This document shows positions 4,191 to 55,027 of a stretch of DNA of 64,000 nucleotides, one piece after another. This DNA is from Minisyncoccota bacterium (GTDB lineage Bacteria > Patescibacteriota > Minisyncoccia > Phycocordibacterales > VMEP01), in NCBI GenBank assembly GCA_041661305.1, contig JBAZUR010000001.1, positions 234,101 to 298,100 of the forward strand, given 5' to 3'. The notes beneath the pieces are model-generated. The model saw only the letters and a list, made by a program, of their open reading frames with translations, did no database searches and was not told the DNA's origin. Numbering within the stretch: the first letter of the stretch is position 1; each line of letters opens with the position of its first letter. The position numbers and the translations under genes were made by a program.

Positions 4191-4303
4191 TTGTGGATTA
4201 TCTCACACCGAAACACCTCAGGTCAATTTTTTATAAAATTCATATTTAATTCCTTTTCTTTCTTCATTAAAACATAGTAATCTTTTTGTATTTAAACACT
4301 CTC

Positions 4304-4393
4304 AAAATACCTCCTAAAAACATTGCGCAGTGCGACGGCACGAGCATAGTAAATTTTCAGCAGAAAATTATACGCGTTTTTGGGAGGTATTTT
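4304..4393 (+). repeat. Copy A of the dispersed structured repeat family (AGCA-loop element)
   Basis: Outer 18-bp inverted repeat AAAATACCTCCTAAAAAC / GTTTTTGGGAGGTATTTT. Core CATTGCGCAGTGCGACGGCACGAGCATAG. Inner hairpin AATTTTC-AGCA-GAAAATT followed by TATACGCG. Related copies lie at 22699-22788, 22090-22220, 47631-47717, 13700-13850 and 40760-40850. Confidence 0.7.
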
Positions 4394-4464
4394 AAAAACA
4401 ATAAATAGAAACTTATTAAATCACTTGGATTAAGCGTGCAAACCGTTATATAATATCAAGAATT

Positions 4465-8232: not shown

Positions 8233-8847
8233 ATGGATGCTCGAGAAAAACTAGAACGTCTTTTTGCAATGTTCCCCGGCATAGGTCCACGTCAGGCTAA
8301 GAGATTTGTATATTTTCTTCTAACTCGAAATAGTAATTTTATCTCGGAACTTTCTTTAGCCCTCGCAGATGTAAAGAAAAATGTTTCTCAGTGCGCTTCT
8401 TGCTATAGATTTTTCCCTAGCGACACGAATACAATGTGTCAGATATGTCGTGGTGCAAACACCGACCAGAGCACTGTCCTTGTTGTTGAAAAAGATGTTG
8501 ATTTTGAAAACGTAAATAAAAGTGGTTTCTATAATGGTCGTTTCTTTATCCTCGGCGGACTACTCCCAATCCTCGAAGAAGAGCCTGCTAAAAAAATCCG
8601 AGCTCGCGAGCTAGTTGCAGAAATTGAGCGCCAAGCAAAACTCGGAGCTCTTAAAGAAATAATTATCGCCCTTTCGCTAAATCCCGAAGGTGAAAATACC
8701 TATCAATATGTTAAGCGCATTCTCGAACCAGTCACACAAAAATATTCTATTAGTTTAAGTACTCTTGGGCGCGGTCTTTCCACTGGTTCCGAACTCGAAT
8801 ACTCAGACGGAGAAACACTTAAATACGCAATCGAAAATAGAAAATAA
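8233..8847 (+). CDS. recR: Recombination protein RecR
   Basis: 204 aa. HhH N-terminus, C4 zinc finger (CASCYRF...CQIC) and Toprim domain. Confidence 0.9.
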   Translation: MDAREKLERLFAMFPGIGPRQAKRFVYFLLTRNSNFISELSLALADVKKNVSQCASCYRFFPSDTNTMCQICRGANTDQSTVLVVEKDVDFENVNKSGFYNGRFFILGGLLPILEEEPAKKIRARELVAEIERQAKLGALKEIIIALSLNPEGENTYQYVKRILEPVTQKYSISLSTLGRGLSTGSELEYSDGETLKYAIENRK

Positions 8848-8878
8848 AAAAAATCCGCCATCAGCGGATTTTTTTTTA
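8846..8878. terminator. Bidirectional rho-independent terminator between recR (+) and rplU (-)
   Basis: Sequence AAAAAAATCCGCCATCAGCGGATTTTTTTTT. Confidence 0.75.
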
Positions 8879-9235
8879 TTTTATCTTCTCTATAGCAACC
8901 TTGAAAAATGGCTGGCGATGTCCTCTAATCTTCAAATAGCGACTCTTGGCCTTGTATTTCATCACCTCTACTTTCTTTGCCTTTCCAATTTCTTTCAATA
9001 CTCCGGTCACTTTTGCTTCTTTTATATATGGAGTTCCGATGGTTGTATCTTTGCCGTCATCAACGAGCAAAACCTTATCAAAGACGATAGCCTCGCCCTC
9101 TTTGTGCTCACCATCCATTATTTCAATAGTAACAACATCGCCAACCGCAACGCGATATTGCTTTCCACCAGTCTTTATTACGGCAAATTCACTTGATTCT
9201 GCCTTCTTTCCTGCGGTTTTCTTGGTTACAGCCAT
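8876..9235 (-). CDS. rplU: 50S ribosomal protein L21
   Basis: The ATG at 9235 gives MAVTKK...FAVIKTGGKQYRVAVGDVV, the L21 signature. The longer GTG-initiated ORF to 9289 is rejected. A TTGCGT-16-TAAAAT promoter-like element lies just upstream on the minus strand. Confidence 0.85.
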   Translation of the reverse strand: MAVTKKTAGKKAESSEFAVIKTGGKQYRVAVGDVVTIEIMDGEHKEGEAIVFDKVLLVDDGKDTTIGTPYIKEAKVTGVLKEIGKAKKVEVMKYKAKSRYLKIRGHRQPFFKVAIEKIK

Positions 9236-9282
9236 GACAGAGTATTTTACATAAAACGAGTAAAAACGCAAGATTACCGTTG

Positions 9283-9452
9283 TTGACACTATATATATAG
9301 AATGCTACAGTCTTTTAGGAAACGAGCTAATCGCTCTTTATCGAAATAACAGCTTTCCTGACCGCACCTCCCTTCCGCTCCATGGCTTGATGGGGCGACC
9401 GCGGTCAGCCCCCGCGCCTACCTCCCCCTTCCCTTTGGCGCGGGGTTTTTTT
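9283..9452 (+). ncRNA. Candidate small structured RNA with its own promoter-like element and intrinsic terminator. Its function is unknown.
   Basis: TTGACA at 9283-9288 followed about 17 nt later by a weak -10 (TACAGT). Then comes a roughly 130-nt noncoding GC-rich segment (about 65% GC in an AT-rich genome) with nested stems: CTGACCGC...GCGGTCAG, and CGCTCCAT-GGCTTG-ATGGGGCG. It ends in the hairpin CCCGCGCC..GGCGCGGGG plus a T7 run. There is no ORF. Confidence 0.4.
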
Positions 9453-9600
9453 ATTGTTTTGTCTAATGTAATCAGTAGCAACAAAACAATAATCCCGTAC
9501 CAAAAACATCTTTGTGGACCAAAAAAGAATAGCGGAACAAAAGGTTAAAAATAATCCTCTACCTAAATGTTCGTTTTTGGTATCGAGATATTTTTTCTTC

Positions 9601-10656
9601 CTATTCGTCTTCTCGGTCGGGTCCTTCCAATATTGGAATTTCGAGTCCTGGGCTCATTCCAGTAATACGTAAAACATCCTTGTCTACCTTCTTCAATTCC
9701 CTTCCAGAAGAATTGTAATGATTGGTCACTGTTTTCAATGAATTCCCAAGCTTGCTGTGATATTCTTCGTACCCTTTTAAATGCTTTCCAAGCTCCTCCA
9801 CCCTCCTTACAATATCTTTTGCGGTCTCTTCAATCTGCATTGCTTTAAGCCCCTGAAGGACTGTTTGTAAGTATGCGAGGAATGATGTTGGAGAAACAAT
9901 AATGACGTGATACTTCCCTGCCGCGCGTTGTATCAAATTCTCTTCGTTCTCTTTTATTGAACCAACCTTATTCACCAAAAGATCATAATAAATCGCTTCG
10001 TGTGGGATAAACATAAAAGCGAAGTCCATCGTTCCCTCGTTCGGGCGAATATATTTTGCCGTTTCAGAAATACGTAATTTCAAATCGTTTAAGAACAGCT
10101 TTGCTAGACGCTCACGCTCCGCTGGATTTTTTTCGTCAATAACACGATTATAATTTTCAAGAGAAAACTTCGAGTCAACAGGAATTATTTTATCTTTTAC
10201 AAAAACAACTGCGTCAACAATTTCTCCGTCTCCAAATGCGTACTGCATTTGATAATCATTAGGAGCCATTACGTTCTTGAGTAATGTTTCCAAATAGTAT
10301 TCCCCCAAAACACCTCTTTGTTTTGGATTCTTCAAAATATCCTGCAATCCTTGAAGCTGATCTGTGACGGAAATAACCTGCTTGTTCGTTTCATCAAGAC
10401 GAGTCAACTTCTCGGTAATATCGCGAATTAAACTCTGCGATTCCACAAATTGATGCCTAACAGCTTCCTGCATATCTTTATTAGACGCGCCAAGCTTGTC
10501 ATCCATCGTCTTCGCCAAAGTCGCGAGTTGGTTTTGAATAAGTAAAAGACTATCAGTTTCAACTGCTGGTTTCCCCTGTTTTGCTGTGATTATCCAAACA
10601 ACAAAAGCTCCGATAAAAACACCAATGACTACAAAAATAATAGTTCCAACTTCCAT
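9601..10656 (-). CDS. rmuC: DNA recombination protein RmuC
   Basis: 351 aa. N-terminal TM helix, long coiled coil, and a conserved C-terminal RmuC nuclease-like region (DFAFMFIPHEAIYYDL). Confidence 0.8.
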   Translation of the reverse strand: MEVGTIIFVVIGVFIGAFVVWIITAKQGKPAVETDSLLLIQNQLATLAKTMDDKLGASNKDMQEAVRHQFVESQSLIRDITEKLTRLDETNKQVISVTDQLQGLQDILKNPKQRGVLGEYYLETLLKNVMAPNDYQMQYAFGDGEIVDAVVFVKDKIIPVDSKFSLENYNRVIDEKNPAERERLAKLFLNDLKLRISETAKYIRPNEGTMDFAFMFIPHEAIYYDLLVNKVGSIKENEENLIQRAAGKYHVIIVSPTSFLAYLQTVLQGLKAMQIEETAKDIVRRVEELGKHLKGYEEYHSKLGNSLKTVTNHYNSSGRELKKVDKDVLRITGMSPGLEIPILEGPDREDE

Positions 10657-13699: not shown

Positions 13700-13850
13700 A
13701 CAGAGAACCGCGAGTACGCTTCGGTCACGGATAAATTTTTGCTAAAATTTTCCGCTACCCCGACTCGCGCCGTCACGCTCCGTCTTTCGATTCTCTGACG
13801 CGAGTAAAGTGATTTACTCGCTTAGGGTCGCAAAAATTGGGCTTTGCTAA
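13700..13850 (-). repeat. tRNA-Glu-proximal copy of the AGCA-loop repeat family, with an additional partial fragment at 13621-13665
   Basis: In minus orientation: CAGAGAATCGAAAGACGGAGCGTGACGGCGCGAGTCGGGGTAGCGG, then the hairpin AAAATTTT-AGCA-AAAATTT, then TATCCGTGACC...CGGTTCTCTG. The outer stem CAGAGAA/TTCTCTG resembles the tRNA-Glu T-stem. This copy is close to the one at 40760-40850. Confidence 0.6.
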
Positions 13851-22089: not shown

Positions 22090-22220
22090 TCTCGTGCCAC
22101 GCATAATTTCTTGCTAGAAATTAGCTCGGCCCCGACTCGCCTCGTCAGGCTCCGTCTCTCAATTGCTTCACATATCGCAATTGAGCGTCGCACTGCGCAA
22201 TGTTTTTTGAGGGGTATTTT
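22090..22220 (-). repeat. Copy C of the AGCA-loop repeat family (a longer variant)
   Basis: In minus orientation: AAAATACCCCTCAAAAAACATTGCGCAGTGCGACG, then an inserted hairpin CTCAATTGC..GCAATTGAG, then GACGGAGCCTGACGAGGCGAGTCGGGGCCGAGC, then the hairpin TAATTTCT-AGCA-AGAAATTA, then TATGCGTGGCACGAG. Confidence 0.6.
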
Positions 22221-22633: not shown

Positions 22634-22698
22634 ATACAAGTAACACTTTCAGTGGTATCTCGAAAAAAACCAAAGTCTATTGTATTCCTGATACCCCA

Positions 22699-22788
22699 GA
22701 GATACTATAGAAAGACATTGCGCAGTGCGACGGCACGAGCATAGCAAAAACTTAGCAAAGTTTTATGTGTGTCTTTCGATAGTATCTC
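22699..22788 (+). repeat. Copy B of the AGCA-loop repeat family
   Basis: Outer stem GAGATACTATAGAAAGACA / TGTGTCTTTCGATAGTATCTC. Core CATTGCGCAGTGCGACGGCACGAGCATAG identical to copy A. Inner hairpin AAAACTT-AGCA-AAGTTTT, which is compensatory relative to copy A. It is flanked by the direct repeats GTATCTCGAAAAAAA at 22663-22677 and 22779-22793. Confidence 0.7.
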
Positions 22789-22798
22789 GAAAAAAATC

Positions 22799-36551: not shown

Positions 36552-37112
36552 ATGCCTAAAAAGATAGTCCAAAACGGTGAGCCGGTCCTTCGTTCACTGG
36601 CTAAGGTCGTTCCACCCGCCGAAATTGACTCTAAAAAAATAAAGCGGGTAATAGCAGACATGAAAGTGGCTTTATCTAAGGAGCCTGACGGCGTTGCTAT
36701 AGCTGCCCCTCAAATTGGAGAATCCTTTCGTATTTTCGTCGTTGCTGGGCGCGTTTTTGCTCTTCGCACCAACGAAGAAGACCCCGAGAAAATTATGGAT
36801 CAAAAACTTTACCCCGATAAAGCCTTCATCAACCCACAAATAATTAAGCGTTCAAAAAAAGAGCGTGAGCTTCTAGAGGGATGTCTCTCTGTGCGTCACA
36901 TCTACGGCAAAATAAAGCGTAGCGAAAAAGCGACAGTGAAGGCACAGGATGAAGATGGAAAAGTTTTTACTCAAACAGGTAGTGGACTACTCGCCGAAAT
37001 ATTCCAACACGAAATTGACCATCTCGACGGAATTCTTTTTATAGACAAAGCAAAAGAACTAAGAGAGCTACATCCCGAAGACGAGGAGGGCTACAATGAA
37101 AACAATGAATAA
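36552..37112 (+). CDS. def: Peptide deformylase
   Basis: 186 aa. GVAIAAPQIG, EGCLS, HEIDHLDG motifs. Confidence 0.85.
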   Translation: MPKKIVQNGEPVLRSLAKVVPPAEIDSKKIKRVIADMKVALSKEPDGVAIAAPQIGESFRIFVVAGRVFALRTNEEDPEKIMDQKLYPDKAFINPQIIKRSKKERELLEGCLSVRHIYGKIKRSEKATVKAQDEDGKVFTQTGSGLLAEIFQHEIDHLDGILFIDKAKELRELHPEDEEGYNENNE

Positions 37113-40715: not shown

Positions 40716-40759
40716 TTGTTGCAACTCCGAGAGAGCAAGTGGCTTAAGCCACTTGCGTG

Positions 40760-40850
40760 CAGGATTCGAAAGCCGGAGCGCGACGGCGCGAGGCGGGGTC
40801 GCAGAATTTTTCAGCAGAAAAATATCTGTGACCGGACTGTCTCCGGAGCA
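40760..40850 (+). repeat. tRNA-Asn-proximal copy of the AGCA-loop repeat family
   Basis: GGATTCGAAAGCCGGAGCGCGACGGCGCGAGGCGGGGTCGCAG, then the hairpin AATTTTTC-AGCA-GAAAAAT, then ATCTGTGACCGGACTGTCTCCGGAG. The outer stem CCGGAG/CTCCGG reuses the tRNA-Asn acceptor sequence and ends with an exact 12-nt copy of the tRNA 3' end. Confidence 0.6.
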
Positions 40851-45589: not shown

Positions 45590-46690
45590 ATGGTCTTCAA
45601 CAATTTTACTTTCTAGTTTTTCCGCTCGCACTCCAAGTAGCCTTATTTTCTTTTTTTGCGGATTTTCCTGCCTATCAAGAAAAGGAATCACTAGAGCAAG
45701 AATTGTTTGTTCAAGCTCTCTTGCTGTCTTAAAGATTTTCTTCGAAGTGAAAGAGCGTGTCTTTGTTTCAAAATCAGCAAACCTCACAGTCAGTACAACG
45801 GTACGGAAACCAACAAACCCCTCTAATTTAATTTTCTCAAACACATCAACACAAAGTGTGTTGATTTTTTTCATAACAAATTTCAAATCGAGTGTATCAA
45901 TCTCGAATGTCTCTTGCTCACCGCACGACTTCGCAATATCTGGCTCAGAAACAACATCGGAGTCGTCAACGCCGAGTAATTTCTGAAAAAGGTCGCTCCC
46001 CCATTTGCCGAACATTGAAACTAGCTTATCTTCCGAGAGTAAACGAGCCTCTTTGATGGTTTTAATTTTATTCGCACTAAAAACATCTAACGTTTTTGGA
46101 CCAACTCCAGAAATTACTGAAACTGATTTGCTAGCCAAAAAATCTGCAGACTGCTCTGGCAAAACCACGGTTAAGCCGTCGGGCTTCTCTTCTTGTGCAG
46201 CAATCTTAGAGAGCATCTTATTTGAAGCAATGCCAACAGAACAGGTAAGCCCCTCCTCTCTCTTTATCTCATCTTTTATTTTTTGAACAATTTTCTCAGC
46301 CTTCTTAAAACTACCGGCCATTGAAATATCAAAATATGCCTCGTCAATGCTTGCCTCTTCCACTAATGGCGTATATTTTCTCAAAATCGCCATAACTCTA
46401 TGAGAACTTTCAACATACTTATGAAATGCTGGTGTGATAAACACCACCCCCTGGTCCCCTCTTTTTTTTGCTTCTTCGGAAAATCGCCATGCTTTTGATA
46501 TTGGCAAAGCTGAATGAATTCCATATCTCCTCGCTTCATAGCTTGCTGTTGAAACAACACCTCGTCCGCTTCCACCTTTTGGGTCAGCACCAATAACAAT
46601 CGGCATTCCTTTCAAATATGGTTTATCGCGCACTTCAACAGAAGCGAAGAAGGCATCCATATCAAGGTGGGCAATAATACGCTCGTTCAT
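45581..46690 (-). CDS. dinB: DNA polymerase IV (Y-family)
   Basis: 369 aa. HLDMDAFFASVE, SIDEAYFD, and the little-finger domain. Confidence 0.9.
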   Translation of the reverse strand: MNERIIAHLDMDAFFASVEVRDKPYLKGMPIVIGADPKGGSGRGVVSTASYEARRYGIHSALPISKAWRFSEEAKKRGDQGVVFITPAFHKYVESSHRVMAILRKYTPLVEEASIDEAYFDISMAGSFKKAEKIVQKIKDEIKREEGLTCSVGIASNKMLSKIAAQEEKPDGLTVVLPEQSADFLASKSVSVISGVGPKTLDVFSANKIKTIKEARLLSEDKLVSMFGKWGSDLFQKLLGVDDSDVVSEPDIAKSCGEQETFEIDTLDLKFVMKKINTLCVDVFEKIKLEGFVGFRTVVLTVRFADFETKTRSFTSKKIFKTARELEQTILALVIPFLDRQENPQKKKIRLLGVRAEKLESKIVEDHLF

Positions 46691-47574: not shown

Positions 47575-47630
47575 TTGCTTAAAAATAAAACAAAATTCGT
47601 ATATTTAACAATAGTTTGTTTATTTTTTTA

Positions 47631-47717
47631 TTTTTCCCTTAAAAAACGCGCATATCCGCCTGCTGGCGGATTGCTATGCTCGTATCGCCATACTGCGCAA
47701 TGTTTTTTAAGGGAAAA
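47631..47717 (-). repeat. Copy D of the AGCA-loop repeat family
   Basis: In minus orientation: TTTTCCCTTAAAAAACATTGCGCAGTATGGCGATACGAGCATAG, then the hairpin ATCCGCC-AGCA-GGCGGAT (GC-rich stem, same AGCA loop), then ATGCGCG, then the outer stem partner TTTTTTAAGGGAAA. Confidence 0.7.
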
Positions 47718-47792
47718 ATCTAGAGTTTTTAAGAAAAAAATTATACGTGTTTTAAAAAAGCAAAAATAAAAAATTGTTGATATAATTCACCT

Positions 47793-54575: not shown

Positions 54576-54699
54576 CTCTCTTCCGTCCCAACCAAAAACC
54601 CCGCATCACGCGGGGCTTTTTAACATATTAACGTTTTCGAAAAACATGATAGTATCAACGCAGTTGCAACTTTAACTCAACCAATCACCGGAGGGCGAA

Positions 54700-54942
54700 A
54701 TGAACACCAGTGAAATCAAAAAGGACGCAATTAAGGGCAATGAAGAATTTGTTGCGTTCTTGCACCAACACGCGAAACAGGCGAAAATTCCCAGCAGTTG
54801 CGACAAGGCATGGCTGGCGAGTGTATGGCAACGAAACAAGGTTGTTTTCATGTTTCATTTCGCTGTACAAAAAGGGGAATCAGGCTCAACCCCGCCCACT
54901 GATGAATTTCTCAGGCAGGCCGCCGAAGCCTATCAAGGCTAG
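54700..54942 (+). CDS. Hypothetical protein (80 aa), paralog 2 of a tandem pair
   Basis: GGAGGG Shine-Dalgarno upstream of the ATG. KGNEEFVAFLHQHAKQAKIPSSCDKAWLASVWQRN...RQAAEAYQG. Followed by the near-identical terminator CCCCGCATCGCGCGGGG at 54960-54988. Confidence 0.5.
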   Translation: MNTSEIKKDAIKGNEEFVAFLHQHAKQAKIPSSCDKAWLASVWQRNKVVFMFHFAVQKGESGSTPPTDEFLRQAAEAYQG

Positions 54943-55027
54943 TTCTCTTCCGTCCCAACCAAAAACCCCGCATCGCGCGGGGCTTTTTAATTTTCTAAAA
55001 GCTATCTGCCTAAAAACTAAAAGCTTC

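Follow-up and report, generated by a model that had tools for sequence, protein, structure and literature searches.

The rmuC-rplU spacer and its predicted transcript

The present analysis concerns a putative small RNA (sRNA) gene at positions 9283-9452 of a 64-kb stretch of DNA from a Minisyncoccota bacterium, the whole of which is called the window here. The host group of the window is Paceibacteria (Patescibacteria/candidate phyla radiation, CPR), its RmuC having an identical counterpart under the NCBI name 'Candidatus Paceibacterota', and the closest rplU among GTDB species genomes is from Parcubacteria/Nomurabacteria, at 60-69% identity. The element occupies the 365-nt spacer between rplU (8876-9235) and rmuC (9601-10656), both on the minus strand, in the local gene order recR (plus), rplU, rmuC, a PDDEXK nuclease gene (minus) and yqeY (plus). 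An earlier model reading of the letters alone, hereafter the sequence-only reading, had described a promoter-like TTGACA with TACAGT, a GC-rich segment, stems, and a terminator followed by T7, and all of these were found where it had placed them. The features of the predicted RNA, the ends of which were inferred from the promoter and the terminator, are listed together with the neighbouring rplU promoter.

9283-9311, plus strand: sigma-70-type promoter (-35 TTGACA at 9283-9288, 17-nt spacer, TG at 9303-9304, -10 TACAGT at 9306-9311)
9318-9452, plus strand: predicted sRNA transcript of about 135 nt (59% GC; 49 C against 31 G)
9324-9336, plus strand: small 5′ hairpin GAGC-UAAUC-GCUC of the minimum free energy (MFE) fold, not conserved in the relatives
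9337-9357, plus strand: A/U-rich stretch after the 5′ hairpin, single-stranded in the MFE fold
9358-9408, plus strand: long hairpin P1 (outer stem 9358-9365/9401-9408, inner stem 9376-9383/9390-9397)
9366-9375, plus strand: 10-nt internal loop of P1, ACCUCCCUUC, with C-rich motif 1 (probability of the motif being unpaired 0.94)
9410-9452, plus strand: intrinsic terminator (9-bp G+C stem, CCCCGCGCC at 9410-9418 with GGCGCGGGG at 9437-9445, then U7 at 9446-9452)
9419-9436, plus strand: 18-nt terminator loop, UACCUCCCCCUUCCCUUU, all pyrimidine bar one A, with C-rich motif 2 (unpaired probability 1.00)
9236-9271, minus strand: rplU promoter, outside the sRNA (TTGCGT at 9271-9266, 16-nt spacer, TAAAAT at 9249-9244, ending 8 nt before the ATG at 9235)

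The sRNA promoter matches the consensus at 10 of 12 positions and predicts a transcription start at about 9317-9319. GC content is 0.68 in the core (9350-9449) versus 0.41 in the whole window, so the compositional contrast proposed earlier (about 65% against about 38%) stands with slightly different figures. The stems are indeed nested, with CTGACCGC (9358-9365) paired to GCGGTCAG (9401-9408) on the outside and CGCTCCAT (9376-9383) paired to ATGGGGCG (9390-9397) around a GGCTTG loop on the inside, but they are not perfect throughout, since the inner stem contains one U.G pair, the equivalent of which on the opposite strand is an A.C mismatch. Both the MFE and the centroid structures consist of two independent hairpins plus the small 5′ hairpin, with neither a closing stem nor a central bubble. 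On the plus strand the fold reaches -51.8 kcal/mol (z -3.3 to -3.75), and none of 200 dinucleotide shuffles folded as well, versus -52.1 kcal/mol and a z of about -1.7 for the minus strand.

The defining feature of the element, which the sequence-only reading overlooked, is a pair of accessible ACCUCCC motifs, one in the P1 internal loop and the other in the terminator loop. This heptamer is the complement of the Shine-Dalgarno (SD)-type sequence GGGAGGU, and both copies are unpaired in the predicted structure. The terminator hairpin (dG -19.8 kcal/mol) is itself unusual in that its 18-nt pyrimidine loop is unique among the approximately 55 terminator-like hairpins in the window, where credible terminators have loops of 3-6 nt.

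The element appears to be neither coding nor part of a messenger RNA. The earlier statement that it contains no open reading frame was slightly overstated, as mechanically called frames of 48 aa (minus strand) and 53 aa (plus strand) overlap it, but these are not conserved in relatives. Coding potential at 9338-9600 was rejected for either strand. A type I toxin-antitoxin system was likewise rejected, because minus-strand frames in the same interval have no conserved start, the one that looks hydrophobic is broken by stops in L086, one of the related loci described below, and the substitutions are mostly non-synonymous and accounted for by stem covariation. Downstream there is no gene on the plus strand, the PDDEXK gene and rmuC both being on the minus strand, and the view that this is not a leader or riboswitch is supported. 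The element is outside any rplU leader because the rplU promoter ends 8 nt before the start codon, and a TTGC-N-~17-TAnAAT arrangement directly before rplU recurs in many related loci. An L21 leader is not supported on this ground, since rplU transcription would start only downstream of the element, and also because Rfam gave no match and the promoter, the U-run and the G.U pairs are all on the opposite strand. The rplU and sRNA promoters stand back to back with 11 bp between their -35 boxes, and the sRNA gene is divergent from the rplU promoter, convergent with rmuC, and antisense to both neighbours.

The sequence-only reading had proposed a comparison with Rfam (SRP, 6S and all families), and in this comparison no family matched. 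Infernal cmscan was run with 4227 Rfam families on the whole window at the gathering score, where it returned two tRNAs only, and on 9150-9650 at E<=10, where the only matches, with unrelated sRNAs (int-alpA, anti-hemB, Hrs1), were at chance level and came from the C-rich loop or the terminator. The homologous spacers of relatives gave nothing, either at the gathering score (13 loci) or at E<=1 (eight loci). RNase P and tmRNA are thus not supported, there being no Rfam match for either, and the LhrC, RsaE and alpha-r14 sequence families were absent from the matches both for the window at E<=10 and for the relatives.

Recurrence in related loci

Relatives came from three sources, namely homologues of RmuC with the contigs that carry them, a set of 80 metagenome loci for which RmuC served as the anchor, and homologues of rplU. 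The close relatives are L082, L174, L173, L083, L086, L171, and L176 (RmuC 78-84% or rplU 74-87% identical), with L138 being farther away (RmuC 64%). These eight loci contain nine analogous RNA genes, all in the rmuC-rplU spacer and antisense to both genes, with two in tandem in L176. All nine end in a hairpin and a U-run, and their GC-rich structured bodies range from 60 to 256 nt. A promoter could be read in every locus except L138, for which none was convincing. A perfect TTGACA with a 17-18-nt spacer and a -10-like hexamer was present in L082, L174, L173, L086, and L171 (hexamers TATTTT, CATTGT, TACTTT, TATTGT, or TACTAT), and variants were present in L176 and L083 (TTGACC-17-TATAAT, TTGCAA-17-TATTCT, and TTGCTA-16-TATTAT). 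The earlier suggestion of an independent plus-strand sRNA gene is supported by the eight related loci, in which position, orientation, promoter, and terminator are found again. The weight given to the promoter in the window comes from the conservation of TTGACA in relatives rather than from single-match statistics, as promoter-like matches in 1.2 kb numbered 4 where 2.6 were expected and a lone match is not above chance.

Sequence between these members has largely turned over. Whole spacers or whole sRNAs could not be aligned with MAFFT outside the terminator and an adjacent AT-rich block, except for the sister pair L086/L171. A search of 81 rplU-anchored loci from GTDB species genomes with nhmmer and blastn matched only an identical contig (L081), because the species representatives are too distant (rplU <=69% identical). 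What members do have in common is a set of C/U-rich motifs, as follows.

Window: ACCUCCC, twice
L082: CACCUCCC and CCCUCCUCCCC
L174: AUCCCCU and AUCCUCCCCU
L173: AUCCUCCC and UUCCCCCUU
L083: AUCCUCCC, UACCUCCU, and ACUCCCCUUU
L086 and L171: CUCCUCCUUU and CCCCUCCUUU
L176b: CUCCUC, UCCUCC, and CCUCCCAA
L138: CCCUCCU and UCCCCCUUU

Partition-function folding of 10 RNAs gave a mean unpaired probability of 0.81 at motifs of the CCUCC/UCCCC type versus 0.38 elsewhere, and each of the 10 had at least one motif with an unpaired probability of at least 0.98. The terminator loops of six lineages (window, L082, L174, L173, L138, and L083) align on YCCCC(C)UU. C exceeds G in all 10 RNAs, and most spacers contain 2-4 of the C-motifs versus 0 of their reverse complements.

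Four features favour the plus orientation. Promoter and U-run, where they can be read, are both placed for it, the U-run following the hairpin on this orientation only in all members, and fold z, which ranges from -2.3 to -5.3 among members, is more negative on the sRNA orientation than on the opposite one in 9 of 10 RNAs. U.G pairs, whose counterparts on the opposite strand would be A.C, are found in the inner stem of the window RNA, in L173, in L138, and in nine cells of the L086/L171 consensus. Within that sister pair, three changes, two compensatory and one wobble, leave pairing intact in the hairpin displaying UUUCUCCUCCUUU or UUUCCCCUCCUUU, and one of each does so in the terminator.

The rmuC-to-rplU order is common, with a spacer of 12 nt to more than 1 kb whose content differs by lineage, and across L091-L177 the spacer appears as a hot spot of variable content: it contains a tRNA-like fragment in L112 (3581-3892), a GC-rich structured stretch in L093 (3545-4055), and the two tandem C-rich sRNA genes in L176 (2583-3000).

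Proposed function, targets, and rival explanations

We propose, with a probability of roughly 0.5, that 9283-9452 is a stand-alone gene for a lineage-restricted, fast-evolving sRNA that acts in trans by pairing with G-rich ribosome-binding sites. As predicted from sequence, the RNA has its own promoter and intrinsic terminator and is not part of an mRNA, and in the predicted folds its SD-complementary C/U-rich motifs are in loops or single-stranded regions, both of which are traits of the anti-SD class of sRNAs. The RNA would thereby be placed in a known functional class, that of accessible anti-SD-like loops, without membership in a known sequence family. Pairing of the loops with G-rich ribosome-binding sites is proposed because the experimentally characterised anti-SD sRNAs follow the same design, being G-poor and stand-alone, with redundant accessible CCUCC/UCCC sites, of which one is in the terminator loop, and with drifting stems. 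An RNA of about 135 nt would be made from its own sigma-70-type promoter and would stop at its own intrinsic terminator, after which one or both of the ACCUCCC loops would pair with a small set of mRNAs at their G-rich ribosome-binding sites, blocking 30S binding and possibly triggering decay, as in LhrC, RsaE/RoxS, RNAIII, and the alpha-r14 family/NfeR1. Transcription, action in trans by base-pairing, and the identity of target mRNAs are all matters that we infer.

Translation initiation in the window bears directly on this proposal. An SD core (-18 to -4) was present at only 9 of 63 gene starts, chiefly before operon-internal genes (fmt at 37096, 38013, and 51957), whereas 23 of the 63 had a -10-like hexamer, TAnnnT, that ended 4-12 nt, most often 6-7 nt, ahead of the start codon. 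Such -10 boxes close to starts suggest, from sequence, that leaderless mRNAs are widespread, and the genome seems to use SD rarely. Examples from the window are the following.

9236-9271, minus strand: rplU
10656, minus strand: rmuC
4465, plus strand
21924, minus strand
28458, minus strand
36552, plus strand
47793, plus strand

Targets were sought with RNAduplex on both strands of the window; as the genome has about 0.5 Mb or more and the window 64 kb, the search had little power. The only notable candidate in the window was fmt (start at 37096, the second gene of def-fmt, with the SD GAGGAGGG), at -16.7 kcal/mol. None of the best trans matches was convincing, their places being the interior of coding regions (e.g. 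46440-46470) or the 3′ end of the PDDEXK gene that precedes rmuC. A GGGAGGT at 4382 was rejected as a target site as it belongs to the outer stem of a multicopy element of about 100 nt, described below.

Several of these observations, and others, weigh against the proposal of a trans-acting sRNA. The rarity of SD cores leaves a small pool of classical targets. Loop complementarity is not enriched at start regions (mean -5.9 versus a background of -7.3 kcal/mol), and the score for fmt is inside the 5% tail of the background and outside the 1% tail. The architecture of the element does recur in relatives, as the sequence-only reading had proposed to check, but covariation, the other part of that check, could be tested in the L086/L171 sister pair only. 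GC-rich hairpins and C-rich loops are simple, and some of the resemblance across lineages could be convergence rather than homology. Distribution is patchy, the gene being missing in L170 (RmuC 83%) and in nearly all loci with RmuC identity of 71% or less, and is therefore that of a gene confined to a narrow clade and quickly gained or lost.

One alternative, possible if rather unlikely, is a role in cis, where the sRNA or convergent transcription would pair or collide with read-through from rmuC and so uncouple rplU from rmuC. No terminator-like site was seen on the minus strand between the rmuC stop (9601) and rplU, the sRNA terminator of L174 abuts the rmuC stop codon, and exact position and orientation have been kept across lineages despite sequence turnover, all of which speaks for such a role. 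A purely antisense role would nevertheless leave unexplained why accessible CCUCC/UCCCC loops alone persist, and many relatives have no such gene and only 12-100 nt between rmuC and rplU. Roles in cis, antisense or insulating, and in trans may exist side by side. That the spacer has no dedicated function, being a fast-evolving GC-rich stretch with a terminator in which the promoter-like site and C-rich loops are incidental, is unlikely. Patchy distribution, rapid turnover, and the chance level of a single promoter-like match would be consistent with this, but not the co-occurrence of promoter, terminator, and accessible C-rich loops in nine further instances and on one strand only, nor fold z values as low as those of the members, nor an 18-nt pyrimidine loop atypical of a mere terminator.

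Slightly less probable again is a decoy, with the exposed motifs copying the 16S rRNA 3′ tail to titrate a factor that recognises it, or binding a C-rich-loop protein (e.g. of KH-domain type). The canonical 16S rRNA 3′ tail reads ...CACCUCCUUUCU. Several loops match this beyond CCUCC, the window and L082 having CACCUCC, L083 ACCUCCUU, L086 CCUCCUUUC, and L171 CCUCCUUU, and the rarity of SD-led genes also speaks for a decoy by weakening the classical target model. On the other side, the UCCCC/CUCCC variants of other members are not 16S-like, the comparison is with the canonical tail, the organism's own 16S being outside the window, and this analysis identified no candidate partner; we know of no protein or ribosomal partner of this type. 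A broader version of the tail-mimic idea, in which the RNA competes with ribosomes for the few SD-bearing cistrons or titrates an anti-SD-tail factor and thus sets the balance between SD-led and leaderless translation, is improbable. Its setting would be a lineage in which most mRNAs are apparently leaderless or SD-less and an RNA whose promoter is back to back with that of a ribosomal protein gene, and the loops cited for it are again CACCUCC, ACCUCCUU, and CCUCCUUUC.

Still more improbable is that the minus strand is the functional one, as an rmuC 3′ untranslated region or an upstream rplU leader, with GGAGG/GGA motifs that would act either as an SD-like standby site or as a sponge of CsrA type. 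GGA-rich loops resemble those of CsrA-binding sRNAs, and the free energies of the two strands are similar. However, the minus strand has the worse z in 9 of 10 members, the U.G pairs are found on the plus orientation only, the U-run after the hairpin and the conserved TTGACA promoter are both on the plus strand, no start codon follows the GGAGG motifs at ribosome-binding-site distance, and the promoter of rplU is downstream of the element. Lastly, the suggestion of the sequence-only reading that this might be a divergent universal RNA, 4.5S (SRP) or 6S, retains almost no probability. CPR RNAs are often divergent and the size is roughly compatible with 4.5S, but the SRP and 6S models matched neither 9150-9650 at E<=10 nor the eight relatives at E<=1, the fold fits neither family, having no domain-IV loop arrangement for SRP and neither closing stem nor central bubble for 6S, and length varies from 60 to 256 nt among members. 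A universal RNA with a fixed locus could not be absent from that locus in L170 and most of the clade, as the element is. The element consequently has no bearing on the question of SRP and 6S RNAs missing from CPR genomes.

If the trans-acting sRNA that we prefer is expressed, it would represent the first candidate class of trans-acting regulatory sRNA for the uncultivated, tiny-genome organisms of the CPR. In the literature searched, no trans-acting regulatory sRNA was described for CPR/Patescibacteria, and a search on leaderless translation in CPR found nothing specific. Such an RNA would further mean that the design of C-rich loop against ribosome-binding site arose in a lineage with few SD-led genes, with the regulon narrowed to a handful of operon-internal cistrons and hence testable. 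The gene is also an example of an sRNA that keeps its position, orientation, and seed motif while the remaining sequence turns over, a kind of RNA that homology searches miss.

Nearby structured elements and comparison with known systems

Other structured elements were observed in and around the window. Between the sRNA terminator and the rmuC stop, an AT-rich block (9453-9590) is conserved in the window, L082, and L086 and is absent in L174, L083, and L171. It includes a hairpin, ATTGTTTTGT (9453-9462) paired to ACAAAACAAT (9481-9490), in which G-C is replaced by A-T as a compensatory change. A long-range helix (9492-9507/9573-9589), in which ACC/GGT changes to ATC/GAT, encloses a variable insert of 48-115 nt. 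The block has a fold z of about -4 on both strands, one wobble pair favouring each strand, and is not coding; an inserted element and an rmuC 3′ structure are candidates. On the other side of the sRNA, rplU is monocistronic in the window, rpmA not being downstream, and a perfect bidirectional terminator at 8846-8876 (A8-TCCGCC-ATCA-GCGGA-T8) is common to the convergent recR (plus) and rplU (minus). Two nearly identical bidirectional terminator hairpins at 54598-54616 and 54965-54983 (CCCCGCATCACGCGGGG and CCCCGCATCGCGCGGGG), 367 nt apart and with A/T runs on both sides, flank a small gene starting at 54740 and look like a local duplication or a repeated terminator module.

The multicopy element mentioned above is an undescribed three-way junction of about 100 nt, present in six intergenic copies in the window.

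4295-4395, plus strand
13727-13783, minus strand
22099-22155, minus strand
22690-22790, plus strand
40748-40847, plus strand
47628-47728, minus strand

Its outer stem is long and variable, and its junction is GAG..AG. Of its two hairpins, one has 4 bp and a conserved GACG loop, and the other has the conserved loop (C/U)AGCA(G/A); two copies just downstream of tRNA genes are without the outer stem. With a covariance model made from four of the copies, the element was also located in eight Paceibacteria loci besides the window, as follows.

L003: 6476-6577
L152: 4721-4822 and 1287-1389
L094: 1396-1497
L118: 4339-4442
L156: 4416-4519
L142: 4082-4189
L147: 1784-1841
L140: 3537-3671

Covariation was very strong: in 15 sequences, compensatory changes were present at 34 of 34 pairs, the share of paired cells was 91.7% and fell to 39-54% on sliding the partners, and none of 500 shuffles attained the observed values. 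No Rfam family matched this element, for which an sRNA family, a mobile repeat, and a ribozyme are candidates, and it may be more novel than the sRNA.

Like the SRP (4.5S) and 6S RNAs the sRNA is small, GC-rich, stand-alone, and structured, but unlike them it has no model match and none of their defining motifs or shapes, and it is not universal even in close relatives. RsaE/RoxS and the C-rich hairpins of RNAIII in Staphylococcus and Bacillus offer a parallel, with UCCC or C-rich loops that bind SD independently of Hfq (PMC2790875, PMC4132741), and the UCCC motif of RsaE, RNAIII, and SprD is described as characteristic of SD-blocking sRNAs in low-GC bacteria (PMC2790875, PMC4132741). The RsaE sequence is, however, highly conserved across Firmicutes, whereas the window RNA can barely be aligned between species of one family-level clade and has no model match.

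The alpha-r14 family, with NfeR1, of alpha-rhizobia carries an identical CCUCCUCCC motif in three loops on divergent stems (PMC10746234), and the pattern shared with the present RNAs is that of anti-SD motifs in unpaired hairpin regions while the stems diverge in primary sequence; L082 even carries CCCUCCUCCCC. That family is alpha-proteobacterial, with three hairpins in fixed layout and an ultraconserved 9-mer, whereas the motif here is looser (CCUCC[CU], UCCCC) and without an Rfam match. LhrC of Listeria monocytogenes (PMC4132741) has a layout of three sites that is reproduced exactly by the 60-nt L176b, whereas the window RNA has two sites, the first in an internal loop and the other in the terminator loop. 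LhrC occurs in five copies, while the window RNA, known from sequence alone, is single-copy at a fixed locus, belongs to another phylum, and has no sequence or covariance-model similarity to it. The likeness to LhrC, RsaE, and alpha-r14 is thus one of design, not of descent.

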